From positions 1-9,852 of the IMG/VR virus record IMGVR_UViG_2778261346_000016: 9,852 nucleotides of DNA. One strand, 5' to 3'. A program made the position numbers and the translations under genes. The stretch comes from a virus (taxonomy: Duplodnaviria > Heunggongvirae > Uroviricota > Caudoviricetes). The notes under the pieces are model-generated. The model was not told where the DNA came from. It worked only from the letters and a program-made list of their open reading frames with translations, and made no database searches. This document shows, piece by piece, positions 7,281 to 9,852 of this stretch; position 1 is the stretch's first letter; each line of letters begins with the position of its first letter.

Positions 7281-7451
7281 TCAGAATGGACACGGCCCAA
7301 GGAAATAACGCTGATTTAATACTTCAGTCTTTGCCGCATTTAAAAATACGCGAACACCTTCACGATCTCCCTTCTGGCGATACATTAACGCCTGCTGCGT
7401 GTACATGCGTCTCTGTAACTTGCTCTCCTTCACTGTGGTTGCAAGTGACAT
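7281..7451 (-). CDS. small ORF, 56 aa (sits where P22 has arf)
   Basis: Hand-translated: MSLATTVKESKLQRRMYTQQALMYRQKGDREGVRVFLNAAKTEVLNQRYFLGPCPF. ATG 7451..7449 with AAGGAG SD 7 nt upstream; stop is 10 nt before the erf start. Overlaps the alternative ORF 7360..7530 in another frame. Confidence 0.35.
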   Translation of the reverse strand: MSLATTVKESKLQRRMYTQQALMYRQKGDREGVRVFLNAAKTEVLNQRYFLGPCPF

Positions 7452-7530
7452 GAATATCTCCTTCGTTACCGATTAAATCTTTCATCTGACGAATGAATTC
7501 TTCGTCTGACCAGTTATCTGTAAAACTCAT
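7360..7530 (-). CDS. alternative small acidic ORF, 56 aa
   Basis: Hand-translated: MSFTDNWSDEEFIRQMKDLIGNEGDIHVTCNHSEGEQVTETHVHAAGVNVSPEGRS. ATG 7530..7528 forms an ATGA overlap with the Kil-like stop, but the SD is weak. Overlaps 7281..7451, so at most one of the two is likely real. Confidence 0.25.
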   Translation of the reverse strand: MSFTDNWSDEEFIRQMKDLIGNEGDIHVTCNHSEGEQVTETHVHAAGVNVSPEGRS

Positions 7531-7679
7531 TTCCTGCGATACAACGGAAGGTTGATAGCTGATTTCATCGCTTTATTTGCTTCAAGCCACATTTTTGAAT
7601 CACCAATAAATCTGGCTATTACTGCTTTGTTCTGTGCAGCACGAAGCATCTGGTGATTGATGGCTATTTCATTGCGCAT
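7527..7679 (-). CDS. kil: Kil-like small protein, 50 aa
   Basis: Hand-translated: MRNEIAINHQMLRAAQNKAVIARFIGDSKMWLEANKAMKSAINLPLYRRK. ATG 7679..7677 with GGAGG SD 4 nt upstream. The core IARFIGDSKMWLEA resembles my recollection of lambda Kil (IATFIGDEKMFREA). Position between cIII-like and the recombination genes matches lambda/P22 synteny. Confidence 0.45.
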   Translation of the reverse strand: MRNEIAINHQMLRAAQNKAVIARFIGDSKMWLEANKAMKSAINLPLYRRK

Positions 7680-7798
7680 AACGCCTCCAGTTGTTTCTTT
7701 GCTGCTCTGATTAATTGTTTAACTCGGCGTGATAATTCAGATTCGTGCGGGTAGAAAGCGGACATGACGCCGCTACCCGCGAGCTGAAAGTGCATCAT
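7664..7798 (-). CDS. cIII: cIII-like protein (FtsH inhibitor family), 44 aa
   Basis: Track ORF 7664..7903 trimmed to ATG-ATG 7798..7793, with AAGGAG SD 7 nt upstream; the longer version would run through a terminator. PHESELSRRVKQLIRAAKKQLEAL resembles the lambda cIII amphipathic core PSESLLERITRKLRDGWKRL (recalled). Confidence 0.5.
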   Translation of the reverse strand: MMHFQLAGSGVMSAFYPHESELSRRVKQLIRAAKKQLEALCAMK

Positions 7799-7861
7799 GG
7801 GTAACTCCTTATATTTGATTGCATAACGAAAACGCCTCGAGTGAAGCGTTATTGGTATGCA

Positions 7862-7888
7862 TATAAAAAAGCCCTCACACTGGAGGGC
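7862..7888 (-). terminator. intrinsic terminator for leftward transcription (tL-like)
   Basis: GCCCTC / GAGGGC 6-bp GC stem (7871..7876 and 7883..7888) with a 6-nt loop, followed on the minus strand by TTTTTTAT (7870..7863). Confidence 0.55.
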
Positions 7889-7950
7889 AAAGAAGATTTC
7901 CAATAATCAGAACAAGTCGGCTCCTGTTTAGTTACGAGCGACATTGCTCC

Positions 7951-7978
7951 GTGTATTCACTCGTTGGAATGAATACAC
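7951..7978. repeat. perfect 9-bp inverted repeat GTGTATTCA / TGAATACAC with 10-bp spacer
   Basis: Read directly at 7951..7959 and 7970..7978. No adjacent U-tract on either strand, so it is not a classical terminator. Confidence 0.5.
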
Positions 7979-8007
7979 AGTGCAGTGTTTATTCTGTTGT
8001 TTATGCC

Positions 8008-8032
8008 AAAAATAAAGGCCGACTATGCGGCC
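8008..8032 (-). terminator. intrinsic terminator immediately after the 60-aa moron gene
   Basis: GGCCG / CGGCC 5-bp stem (8017..8021 and 8028..8032) with a 6-nt loop, followed on the minus strand by TTTATTTTT (8016..8008). The stop codon of the 8033..8215 gene abuts the stem. Confidence 0.45.
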
Positions 8033-8215
8033 TCAGAATGGTTTATATCCATTTTTAAAGGCGAAATCGTATGCCTCATCCTTAGTGCTGAAGTATTCAT
8101 AATCAGCAAATCCATCACGATAAAACTTGCAGCACCAATGATGCGGAATGCCATCCTCAGGACCATAGTCTTGATGGAACACATCCTCGACGATGATATT
8201 TTCATCTTTTCCCAT
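8033..8215 (-). CDS. small acidic aromatic-rich protein, 60 aa (moron; function unknown)
   Basis: ATG 8215..8213 with AGGTGA SD about 5 nt upstream; TGA 8035..8033 followed directly by a terminator. The locally AT-rich segment (about 7985..8280) contrasts with its flanks. About 13 D/E against 6 K/R. Confidence 0.5.
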   Translation of the reverse strand: MGKDENIIVEDVFHQDYGPEDGIPHHWCCKFYRDGFADYEYFSTKDEAYDFAFKNGYKPF

Positions 8216-8277
8216 ATATCACCTAAAATAAGTGGTTTGCTGCCAAAACAATGAACCATCCGGAAATTCCAGATAGT

Positions 8278-8505
8278 TCATAATTCACTCTTCAATACTT
8301 CCAACTTACTAATCGCCGATAGATATCCGCGCTGATAGGGAATCATCATTCCTTCGAGCTTGCCACTTCTTAACTCCTCCCTGAGCAATTGTATTGCTTG
8401 ATCAATAACCTCTGACTTAGCGTCCTTTATGGCTTGCTTGCGGGGCTTTGCTTTCTGCTTTGGCAGATTTCTCAAGCATGATGGAATGTATGTCTGATTC
8501 ACCAC
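8278..8505 (-). CDS. possible small protein, 75 aa, GTG-initiated (low confidence)
   Basis: ORF beginning at GTG 8505..8503 immediately after the N-like TAA. No ATG start or clear SD; it may be real (coupled to N) or spurious. Confidence 0.25.
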   Translation of the reverse strand: MVNQTYIPSCLRNLPKQKAKPRKQAIKDAKSEVIDQAIQLLREELRSGKLEGMMIPYQRGYLSAISKLEVLKSEL

Positions 8506-8778
8506 TTACCTCGCCGTCAGTTGTTTTGATTTCCGGTATCCTGCCGCGTAAATAGCTACGTTTGGCAGGCAAACACTTCCACTGCATTCATCTGCCTTCT
8601 TGCAGCGAAGGCTTCCGAGTGATGCTGCTTTGTCTGCTCTGACGCAACCAGAGAGCTTTCGCGCAATTTTTCGCGCCAGTCGCTGCTCTTGCATTGCCTG
8701 TTCACGTTGAGCCTGTCTGCGTGCTCTGCGGCGATTTCTGGCGTTATCGTCAGCCAGATATGTAATGACTACTGTCAT
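8506..8778 (-). CDS. N: N-like transcription antiterminator with N-terminal arginine-rich motif, 90 aa
   Basis: ATG 8778..8776 with GGAGGT SD 6 nt upstream. N-terminal NARNRRRARRQAQREQ resembles the lambda N arginine-rich motif (TRRRERRAEKQAQW, recalled). First gene downstream of the nutL-like site and operator/promoter region on the same strand. Confidence 0.55.
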   Translation of the reverse strand: MTVVITYLADDNARNRRRARRQAQREQAMQEQRLARKIARKLSGCVRADKAASLGSLRCKKADECSGSVCLPNVAIYAAGYRKSKQLTAR

Positions 8779-9223
8779 GTTGACCTCCGATGATTGACTT
8801 TGGTGATTGGATGGCCGGTGCTGAATTCCGGCTTACTGGTTAGAGCGCCCGCACTACCAGTGACGCTGTCTTGAGGCGCAGATTGGTTACTGCTTGCCAT
8901 GAGCGCTGTTTATACATTGGTCGAGCATCAGCCTGCTCATTCATCCAATCCCAAAGCCAACTACTCTTTGACTCACACTCTCGCAGTGAGCGCGCTCATG
9001 CCCTTGAGTCTCTGCCGCTTCATCGCCGCTGATAACCGGTGCGCGTCTGGCATTCGCGCTGCTTTACCGGAGCTACTTTTAATATATTGACCCTAACCCG
9101 ATGCTAAGCAGGCTCGCTCAATGGCGACTCAGGGCAGCATCATTACTGCTGCATTTCCTTTCGGCTGCGGTCTAACCGCGTTAGTGCACCATTACGGCAC
9201 CTCCTGTTTGGTTAAACTCAGTT

Positions 9224-9263
9224 CCCGCATTTCGGCGGGACAATCCCATCAATGTTAAAGAGC
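9224..9263 (-). promoter_or_regulatory. nutL-like site: boxA plus boxB hairpin
   Basis: Minus strand reads GCTCTTTAACA (reverse complement of 9253..9263), close to the recalled boxA consensus (rrn boxA TGCTCTTTAACAA; lambda CGCTCTTA). A 13-nt spacer is followed by hairpin CCCGC-CGAAAT-GCGGG (9239..9224). Confidence 0.45.
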
Positions 9264-9304
9264 CTGCCAATCTGTTCCGTTTGGCTTCCAGCGTCCTGCT
9301 GATG

Positions 9305-9400
9305 GCTAAAGAATACTGTAGGTATTTTATTGTGTAAATACCCAAGGTATTTATTTTTGATGAAATAATGATAAACAAATGAATACAAAGGATATTTATT
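9305..9400 (-). promoter_or_regulatory. oL/pL-like region: three 17-bp operator palindromes overlapping a leftward promoter
   Basis: Perfect 7-3-7 palindrome AAATACC-CAA-GGTATTT at 9336..9352; imperfect copies GAATACT-GTA-GGTATTT at 9311..9327 and GAATACA-AAG-GATATTT at 9381..9397. Minus-strand candidate -35 TTTACA (9338..9333), 17-nt spacer, -10 TATTCT (9315..9310), about 40 nt upstream of boxA. Confidence 0.45.
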
Positions 9401-9483
9401 TGTTTCGGTGTCTGCTTGTTCAGTGCTTTTTATGCGGGATATGTGAAGTGGATCCCGATAGCTATTGCTGCCGGGATTATGGG

Positions 9484-9852
9484 TTAGTCAGCGAAGGTTA
9501 AGACGAGAATTACCTTAATGATGTCTGCTACAACAGACACGGCCATAGATAAACCAAAGACGATCCAAGCCATAGAGATGTCTTCACTACCATCGTATAG
9601 GGTTCCGTAATCACTGGTGTAAGGCGTAAATGTCGCGCCTTGATACAATAGGTATAAGCTTGATCCATAGAGGATAAATGCAGATATCCCTTGTATTGCT
9701 ATGATCACTAGAATCATGAAACGAGCTGATCTATGCGCCCAAGCCTGGCTTATTTTTTCTGATAGAGATTTCGCAATAAAAGCATGCGCTAAGCCGTAAA
9801 TTGTTGAGATTGCCAACATCCCCAAAAAGCTTGCTATAGCGGTTCCAACCAT
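9484..9852 (-). CDS. hydrophobic membrane protein, possibly 5'-truncated by the window edge (occupies the lambda rexB-like position)
   Basis: ORF runs to the window end with no upstream stop visible, so the ATG at 9852 may be internal. Multiple long hydrophobic stretches. Sits on the far side of the operator region from the N-like gene. Confidence 0.45.
   Translation of the reverse strand: MVGTAIASFLGMLAISTIYGLAHAFIAKSLSEKISQAWAHRSARFMILVIIAIQGISAFILYGSSLYLLYQGATFTPYTSDYGTLYDGSEDISMAWIVFGLSMAVSVVADIIKVILVLTFAD

Follow-up and report, generated by a model that had tools for sequence, protein, structure and literature searches.

The early-left leader of the tailed phage record IMGVR_UViG_2778261346_000016 (Caudoviricetes; IMG/VR positions 1 to 9,852, the whole 9,852-nt stretch being referred to here as the window) contains, between the boxB element of its nutL site and its N-like antiterminator gene, a 250-nt structured RNA module. 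It belongs to a family of structured RNAs that is widespread among temperate Enterobacterales phages, phage-plasmids and conjugative plasmids and has so far escaped the catalogues. The fold comprises about ten helices, with loops and junctions that contain invariant nucleotides, and the module is headed by a ribosome-binding site and a start-and-stop mini-gene of one to three codons. We regard this anatomy, and the existence of a conserved RNA module within it, as highly probable. A function in cis, as a suppressor of polarity or a stabilizer of the transcript, is put forward tentatively and falls short of even odds. For the explanation as a whole, which blends anatomy and mechanism, we estimate a probability of roughly 0.55.

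Organization of the N leader

The elements of the leader can be placed by comparison with phage HK620, of which a stretch with annotated OL operators, pL and nutL is 98-99% identical to window positions 9500..9221. In the direction of transcription, they are as follows:

9338..9310, minus strand: pL-like promoter (TTTACA, 17 nt, TATTCT), from a promoter scan and 98-99% identity to the annotated HK620 pL
9265..9223, minus strand: nutL, which maps onto the annotated HK620 nutL (AF335538 locus positions 1736-1777)
9263..9255, minus strand: boxA GCTCTTTAA, placed via HK620 nutL
9240..9223, minus strand: boxB hairpin tcccgccgaaatgcggga, placed via HK620 nutL
9220..8971 (250 nt), minus strand: inserted structured RNA module, type A, a precise insertion with respect to HK620 and phi296
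8966..8789, minus strand: long hairpin of the N leader, from folding and comparison with HK620-type leaders
8788..8784, minus strand: Shine-Dalgarno (SD) sequence GGAGG of N, from the sequence
8778..8506, minus strand: N-like antiterminator gene, 90 aa, from phrog_271 and HK620 N

The leader is thus a composite in which pL, nutL, the 250-nt module, a hairpin of about 180 nt, the SD and N follow one another on the minus strand. In a pairwise comparison, window positions 9265..9224 are 98-99% identical to the annotated HK620 nutL. The 90-aa open reading frame (ORF) matches phrog_271 at 2e-33 and is 98% identical to HK620 N. As in lambdoid early-left leaders, boxA and boxB lie downstream of pL and upstream of N, and an arginine-rich N-type antiterminator follows nutL.

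A first-pass annotation of this DNA had drawn attention to an unusually long and GC-rich leader, and both properties are real. The distance from boxB to the N start codon is 445 nt (9223..8779), and the G+C fraction is 0.53, against 0.47 for the whole window and 0.36-0.44 for the flanks. HK620, with pL, nutL and N that are 98-99% identical to those of the window, nevertheless has only 108 nt in the same interval. The extra length consists of a mobile 250-nt module placed after boxB and of an enlarged apical part of the hairpin, and not of a stretched lambda-type leader.

Compared with HK620, phi296 and mEp213, the insert (9220..8971) lies between ...gcgggaac and caaagagtag, 2 nt past boxB. The second difference from the 108-nt leader is a stretch of 146 nt (8949..8804) that replaces 59 nt, the two leaders having in common the 21 nt at 8970..8950 and the last 25 nt ahead of the ATG. 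Against the empty HK620 site, neither a target-site duplication nor terminal inverted repeats were found at the insert; TGAGT occurs at both of its ends and is absent from the empty site. The module is present as a single copy in the window, where it is recovered by nhmmer (E = 8e-67) and by a covariance model (9222..8969, 251.7 bits), and the covariance model detects none in HK620, phi296 or the pL region of HK022. It is therefore an accessory element, close relatives being without it. Homologous phages that lack the segment, which the first-pass annotation had proposed as evidence against a regulatory RNA, do exist (HK620, phi296, mEpX2 and ECP1); they make the module optional but not meaningless, given that hundreds of other elements conserve it, with covariation.

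Conserved fold of the module

An exact search of IMG/VR contigs with the core 18-mer CTCAAGGGCATGAGCGCG found it in at least 119 contigs. Removal of near-duplicates left 80 sequences less than 93% identical to one another, and a covariance model built from 75 of these recognized 99 full-length copies in 100 loci. RNAalifold and a separate helix list agree on the order of the helices P1-P10, namely P1, an optional P2, P3, a P4/P5/P6 junction, an A-rich linker, nested P7 and P8, a variable stretch, P9 and P10. In the window, the parts of the module are:

9205..9200 and 9192..9181, minus strand: head, with SD AGGAGG and mini-ORF ATG GTG CAC TAA, conserved in homologues
9179..9167, minus strand: P1 hairpin GCGG-UUAGA-CCGC, paired in 93% of alignment cells, with two compensatory variants
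9152..9134, minus strand: P3 hairpin GCAGCA/UGCUGC with loop GUAAUGA, 6/6 pairs compensatory and 96% of cells paired
9133..9091, minus strand: three-way junction P4/P5/P6, CCU-GAGU-[UCGC..GCGA]-G-[CCUG..CGGG]-UUA-GGG, from covariation and folding
9070..9036, minus strand: P7/P8 stem-loop CCGG..GCGCG-AAUGCCAGA-CGCGC-A-CCGG, from covariation
9008..8991, minus strand: core CUCAAGGGCAUGAGCGCG with helix P9 CUCA/UGAG, the 18-mer being exact in the viral contigs counted above
8990..8972, minus strand: tail hairpin P10, with 3 covarying pairs and loop UGCGAGAGU

Pairing is strongly maintained among the homologues. For 31 well-aligned pairs, the paired fraction of cells is 97.2%; column shuffles give 85.4% (none of 500 reaching the observed value), and sliding the partners by 1-3 columns gives about 33%. 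Changes on both sides affect 19 of the 31 pairs (237 cells). Individual helices differ in the form of their support. The loop of P3 is conserved as GUNRUGA, P4 covaries between C-G and U-A (60 to 13), and P5 and P6, which have many different stem sequences, appear in most of 74 distinct variants when these are folded singly; P6 may carry an optional extra hairpin. Compensatory changes concern 5/5 pairs of P8 and 2/4 pairs of P7, with 97-98% of cells paired. P9 is invariant in the first set because it lies inside the search pattern, and on plasmid copies it reads CCCA...UGGG, a compensatory change.

G-U pairs are common in the alignment and A-C pairs are rare, from which it follows that the functional strand is the transcribed one. 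Together, the compensatory changes and this excess of G-U over A-C pairs show that the module acts at the RNA level. The suggestion that the region could hold a structured regulatory RNA, possibly with a processing site, is borne out in that most of it is conserved and covarying RNA structure on the transcribed strand; the comparative folding across related phages proposed at that time gives precisely this picture of conserved structure with compensatory changes. The folding energy of the single module sequence is no better than that of shuffles (z = -0.23), so that the structural case rests on the comparison of homologues and not on thermodynamics. A mutual-information scan for extra tertiary pairs disclosed no new helix, its signal being dominated by subfamily structure.

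A ribosome-binding site and mini-ORF at the 5' end

The strongest signal of the leader had been overlooked in the first-pass annotation, which reported two ORFs without an SD. It consists of the AGGAGG at the start of the module, followed after 7 nt by ATG GTG CAC TAA, with P1 beginning 2 nt past the stop. Every subfamily has the same pattern of a purine-rich SD located 5-9 nt before an ATG, zero to two further codons, and a stop. A simple test finds the SD and ATG in at least 68 of the 75 diverged homologues, most of those failing it having been cut short by the extraction window. The mini-ORF has one codon in 9 homologues, two in 11 and three in 43 (63 with one to three codons), its stop is TAA in 50 of 68 cases, and this stop lies 2-3 nt ahead of the first helix across the family. 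Plasmid copies carry the SD and mini-ORF as well. Given the known size of the ribosome footprint, a ribosome sitting on the mini-ORF would have to open P1. The encoded peptides have no fixed sequence (MKH, MVH, M, MK, MHK and others), no sense codon being conserved.

This head resembles the bar minigenes of phage lambda, in which an SD, an AUG, one sense codon and a stop lie on the pL transcript; here too, a strong SD and an ORF of one to three codons, with its stop, are found inside the transcript that starts at pL. The last sense codon of the bar minigenes is AUA, and these minigenes are toxic to pth-defective hosts. No such specific last codon is found in the module, the codons varying widely among homologues, and depletion of one particular tRNA is unlikely because the sense codons of the mini-ORF vary freely. 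A further difference is that a large conserved fold invariably continues the mini-ORF of the module, while bar is not known to have one.

Distribution and genomic context

The module is absent from current catalogues. Rfam 15 gives nothing in the leader region at E <= 1 when the whole window is scanned, and the best match of the module alone is skipping-rope (RF02924), with 15.5 bits against a gathering threshold of 36.7. Scans of the copy of the phage-plasmid phiKO2 and of a variant with another body (type B2, see below) returned only chance-level matches, and the matches of this kind (SCARNA7, skipping-rope, AbsR28, ceN28, MIR814 and RAGATH-36) were discarded. No paper reached by topic searches, or by full-text searches for its exact core, head and tail sequences, describes the module, and a tRNA/tmRNA scan was also negative. 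Skipping-rope RNAs have a sophisticated structure that ends in a terminator and a function that is unknown (PMC5737381). The module is likewise an orphan structured RNA with a conserved GAGG near the 5' side, whereas the outer helix of skipping-rope is unmatched in it and most copies are without the terminator that ends skipping-rope RNAs.

Homologues of segment 9220..8971 (69-90% identity) are located in unannotated gaps of unrelated phage regions. They are co-oriented in mEp213, Hafnia phage yong1, vB_EcoS-733R5, the Klebsiella phages RothC and RothD, phiKO2, EPP-1 and PSTCR7lys, and further copies are present in Edwardsiella and Providencia phages; in every case, the orientation is that of the flanking genes. 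Among the complete E. coli genomes, 118 of 5426 carry the module, always on the chromosome and never annotated. It was also found on 23 Enterobacterales plasmids, eight of them typed as conjugative, from Pantoea, Rahnella, Erwinia, Pectobacterium, Yersinia, Klebsiella, Enterobacter, Providencia, Edwardsiella and Lelliottia. A degenerate 18-mer scan of representative genomes gave almost exclusively chance matches in GC-rich genomes, the nhmmer profile confirming only five loci, all in Enterobacterales (Citrobacter, Pseudocitrobacter, Kluyvera, Silvania and one other).

The positions in individual phages are diverse:

mEp213: ahead of the second N gene
Hafnia phage yong1: after rexB
vB_EcoS-733R5: between the lysis genes and terminase
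Klebsiella phage RothC: downstream of Q and a tR'-like terminator, with tRNA genes and the holin following
Linear phage-plasmid phiKO2: after the lysis genes, then a terminator

Across viral loci, the neighbours (taken as the nearest sizeable ORFs on the same strand) are:

Upstream: CI-like repressors, 26/98
Upstream: Q antiterminators, 12/98
Upstream: Rz-type spanins, present
Downstream: N-like proteins, 15/99
Downstream: holins, 13/99
Downstream: HNH endonucleases, about 5/99

The remaining neighbours are unknown proteins, and clustering of the neighbouring ORFs identified no partner protein that co-occurs across contexts. In about 17 of 95 loci, the module is immediately preceded by a terminator-like hairpin, which corresponds to the tR' situation; a terminator immediately follows it in only about 13 of 95. 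The distance from the module to the next ORF ranges from 0 to more than 700 nt. Neither the window nor phiKO2 has room for a promoter belonging to the module, which must then depend on transcription of the operon.

On plasmids, the module is associated with conjugation genes. The copies of four MPF_I (IncI-like) plasmids are flanked by a PilK-like gene and pilL, where the type IVb pilus genes begin, and the pET49 copy is part of the leader of a virB-like type IV secretion operon. Just upstream of the module, pLPa1526 has traA and a NusG-family traB (two genes upstream), along with a further gene that we take to be traC. The equivalent pilK-pilL gap of the E. coli IncI1 plasmid pESBL (328 nt) is without the module. 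What all these contexts share is an optional insert, co-oriented with its surroundings, in the leader or an intercistronic gap of a long mobile-element operon.

Some additional features of these loci can be mentioned. The four MPF_I plasmids (loci L314, L315, L316 and L318) and pET49 (L319) come from Pectobacterium, Rahnella, Pantoea and Erwinia. Small HNH endonuclease genes occur no farther than 1-1.5 kb from the module in the late regions of several phages (RothC, locus L006, 2589-3125; L005, 3104-3454; L010, 3143-3493) and in three of the MPF_I plasmids (L315, 2825-3199; L316, 2503-2937; L318, 2081-2443); this proximity could be a coincidence, HNH genes commonly adjoining terminase. In mEp213, the early-left operon has two N-type genes (L002, 394-726 and 1879-2151), and boxB, the RNA module and the leader hairpin stand in front of the second, HK620-like one, with no boxA-containing pL region directly upstream.

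Possible functions of the module

In the mechanism that we tentatively favour, the module would be co-transcribed with its operon, a ribosome would load on the mini-ORF, open P1 and re-initiate repeatedly, and the compact fold would act in cis on its own transcript or on the elongation complex. On very short minigenes, ribosomes have been shown to recycle without leaving the mRNA (PMC2490762). The fold could in this way sustain expression of the long untranslated leader and of the operon behind it: it might suppress polarity or termination, as put and EAR RNAs do, or it might stabilize the 5' end. The variable distance to the next gene and the rarity of an immediate terminator fit a cis function that is independent of distance.

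The put RNAs of phage HK022 and the EAR element of Bacillus are cis-acting RNAs of processive antitermination; those of the put type make RNA polymerase read through terminators with no need of protein factors. The module has in common with them that it is structured, co-oriented, located in a leader or within a long operon at no fixed distance from the next gene, and sometimes followed by terminators. It differs in its mini-ORF head, in its coexistence with N/nut or Q, and in having no similarity of sequence or structure to the HK022 pL region; it is also about three times larger than put. A role in antitermination is suggested here by analogy.

Several considerations weigh against a function of this type, which is deduced from anatomy and context. 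The phage copies lie downstream of nutL or of Q and tR', where the polymerase should already resist terminators and Rho, so that an extra antiterminator should be redundant. Neither the nhmmer profile nor the covariance model R1 has a match in HK022 positions 22000-29000, where we presume pL and putL to lie, put not being annotated in that record. A 230-nt fold with invariant loops seems over-elaborate for a mere stabilizer, and the association of the same head and tail with different bodies could denote a specificity domain acting in trans. Finally, a terminator directly follows the module in phiKO2 and in about 13 of 95 loci, which would be in keeping with a discrete RNA product.

These last points lead to the chief rival of the cis leader reading, a rival that we judge rather unlikely. 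The module would be a self-contained non-coding gene, an "RNA moron", carried as cargo on strongly transcribed, antiterminated transcripts, processed out of them and acting in trans on a host machine. The ribosome would be the obvious candidate target given the mini-ORF head, and such an RNA might modulate translation or counter host defence. Optional and mobile, the module does occupy phage cargo sites (after pL/N, Q and Rz) and adjoins tRNA genes in several phages; the invariance of its loops and junctions points to a macromolecular partner that is itself conserved, its bodies are interchangeable between the same head and tail, and a terminator directly follows the phiKO2 copy and some others. 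On the other hand, the module lacks a promoter of its own and usually also a terminator, the heads of plasmid pil and virB operons are not typical cargo sites, and no seed-like single-stranded region stands out in the fold.

A classical riboswitch or leader-peptide attenuator, controlling the next gene via a terminator or sequestration of its SD, is very improbable. It would account for a complex conserved fold in a 5' leader and for a mini-ORF that precedes the structure as in attenuators. The genes that follow are nonetheless unrelated (N, holins, tRNAs, HNH, pilL, virB) and lie at 0 to more than 700 nt, only about 13 of 95 loci have a terminator, the mini-ORF is devoid of conserved sense codons and no Rfam riboswitch matches. 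No expression platform at a fixed position before a coherent set of genes was found among the 95-99 loci. A fold that is optional, co-oriented, dependent on the operon, variably placed and provided with a mini-ORF argues against any gene-specific device of this kind.

We consider equally far-fetched a new self-cleaving or processing RNA that would cut the nut RNA, or the upstream transcript, from the downstream message. Strictly conserved unpaired nucleotides around multi-helix junctions would suit such an RNA, and there is a precedent in lambda, in which RNase III cleavage parts nutL from the N ribosome-binding site and relieves repression (PMC5725501). The module matches no known ribozyme family, however, and is larger than the known small ribozymes.

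The nut and put leader RNAs of phage operons have shaped our understanding of how transcription elongation is controlled. The module adds to them a large RNA that has strong covariation support, is in no catalogue and bears a strictly conserved 5' start-and-stop mini-gene. It has moved among early and late phage operons and the pilus and type IV secretion operons of plasmids across Enterobacterales, Shiga-toxin phages included. Should it suppress polarity or stabilize long transcripts, mobile DNA would have in it a new, factor-independent escape from Rho silencing, and synthetic operons could use it as a compact part. Should its action be in trans on the ribosome, phages and plasmids would possess a novel type of RNA effector. 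Annotation pipelines currently leave the module blank or call spurious ORFs over it, and should include it.

Small ORFs and palindrome of the leader

That the region encodes small proteins (plus-strand ORFs of 63 or 45 aa, minus-strand ORFs of 41 or 34 aa) has a negligible probability: such ORFs are present, and some records annotate hypothetical proteins over homologous stretches, but their frames are not kept between subfamilies, they exceed the module borders and none has an SD. The plus-strand 63-aa (8899..9090) and minus-strand 41-aa (8775..8900) ORFs of the first-pass annotation are indeed in the ORF list, and lack an SD as it stated; what escaped it was the conserved SD with its three-codon mini-ORF. 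Antisense stop-free stretches over the homologues of the module have a median of 67 aa, and indels are often multiples of three. Antisense protein coding was rejected on the basis of frame shifts between subfamilies, many of the frames stopping 14 aa past the core, and in the window the plus-strand ORFs run past the borders of the module. In the 146-nt stretch that replaces 59 nt of the HK620 leader (segment B), a 34-aa ORF was rejected, its stop and ATG being lost in BUCT554 and ep3, and a 41-aa ORF is not supported by homologues.

The 12-nt perfect palindrome TGAGCGCGCTCA (8987..8998), correctly positioned in the first-pass annotation and proposed there as a possible protein-binding site, lies within the core and P10 region (9008..8972). 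Its use at the DNA level by a dimeric protein can practically be discarded: it is perfect, 12 bp long and set in a regulatory region, but only 4 of 75 diverged homologues retain it, 7% of leader shuffles contain one, and the conservation around it is that of strand-specific RNA pairing with G-U pairs. Most homologues read GAGCGCGGCCAC at this place. The palindrome arises where the invariant ...UGAGCGCG abuts the 5' arm of P10, which is CUCAC in the subfamily of the window and GCCAC in most others. It is a by-product of this junction and not a site, and protein binding to it is unlikely. The only other perfect 12-nt palindrome of the window is TTTTTGCAAAAA (2512-2523).

The N-leader hairpin and segment B

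Downstream of the module, window positions 8971..8779 fold into one long hairpin (minimum free energy -73 kcal/mol, z = -4.48), as stably as none of 200 shuffles. In its main stem, GUUGGCUUUGGGAUUGGAUG (8961..8942) pairs with CAUCCAAUCACCAAAGUCAAU (8812..8793), and the hairpin ends 4 nt upstream of the N SD (8788..8784). A long double-stranded hairpin just ahead of this SD is what lambdoid N leaders have. The same hairpin is present in the 108-nt version of the leader in HK620, mEp213, mEpX2, ECP1 and Stx1a_10051, and in a longer form in yong1. Comparison of the window, HK620 and yong1 shows the distal stem to be compensated (GGUGACG/CGUCACC, GAUUGGAUG/CAUCCAAUC and GGUGUGGUG/CACCACACC).

In the N leader of lambda, nutL and the N ribosome-binding site are parted by RNase III, and N-mediated repression is thereby lifted. 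By analogy, the long hairpin plausibly represents a structure for RNase III processing and N autoregulation. Lambda N, together with Nus factors at nutL, represses N translation via a highly structured leader in a manner modulated by RNase III (PMC5725501). The leader of the window has the order of the lambda type (pL, boxA, boxB, long hairpin, SD, N), and differs from it in the 250-nt foreign RNA module between boxB and the hairpin and in the enlarged apical part of the latter (146 nt against 59 nt); cleavage and autoregulation, known for lambda (PMC5725501), would be transferred to it by analogy.

Segment B (8949..8804) is therefore the enlarged apical part of a conserved leader hairpin. The 6-bp stem ACTGGT/ACCAGT (8835..8840 and 8856..8861), which the first-pass annotation had singled out, exists at these positions as a minor sub-hairpin of segment B within the larger structure, and it is broken in the homologue KO-TP1. 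Blocks of segment B recur in IME10, Gally, 611R6, ep3, BUCT554 and KO-TP1. In the Enterobacter phage BUCT554 (L251, about 1460-1500), the homologue of segment B directly follows an apparent tRNA 3' end (GGGTTCGAATCCC...), so that the segment may move as an RNA piece of its own. On the other side of the leader, upstream of pL, a 122-aa ORF (window 9484-9852, minus strand) encodes an hkaS-type membrane-like protein (phrog_6534 at 1e-78), a protein with no assigned function that sits after cI in HK620.

Related modules with other bodies

A pattern limited to the head (TAA-N-GCGGATAGACCGC) revealed further loci in which the ribosome-binding site, the mini-ORF and the P1 hairpin GCGGAUAGACCGC are joined to other RNA bodies. 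Type B2 (for example L262, L286 and L308) retains the tail hairpin GCCACUGCGAGAGUGUGGC around a different middle of 170 nt, the tail is a different one in type B2', and type A-long has about 155 extra nt between P1 and P3. In the B2 copy of L286 (6468-6700, minus strand), an HK620-like leader hairpin comes next. Type B2 matches no Rfam family and is absent from the records of isolated phages. One contig (L115) combines a type A copy (13045-13306, plus strand) with a head-only match that has a B2'-like body (5041-4898, minus strand). Other variant loci are L276, L297 and L285, and L260, L298 and L045.

Taken together, these head-fused variants suggest a modular superfamily. In a broader and, in our opinion, doubtful extension of this idea, the module would be the first recognized member of a new superfamily of ribosome-primed operon-leader RNAs with a shared head and tail and interchangeable bodies, used by lambdoid phages, phage-plasmids and IncI-like and virB-type conjugative plasmids. 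Such RNAs would provide a protein-independent protection of very long operons against Rho or termination, or a parked ribosome coupled to a folded RNA with an as yet undescribed activity.

A different insert of about 200 nt is present after the leader hairpin in HK140 (L254, about 668-880) and CUS-3 (L258, about 480-700), two phages with the same N leader, and in no other isolated phage. It starts with GGAGGATTT ATG TGA, that is, an SD followed by a start-stop, and its two copies are 73% identical.

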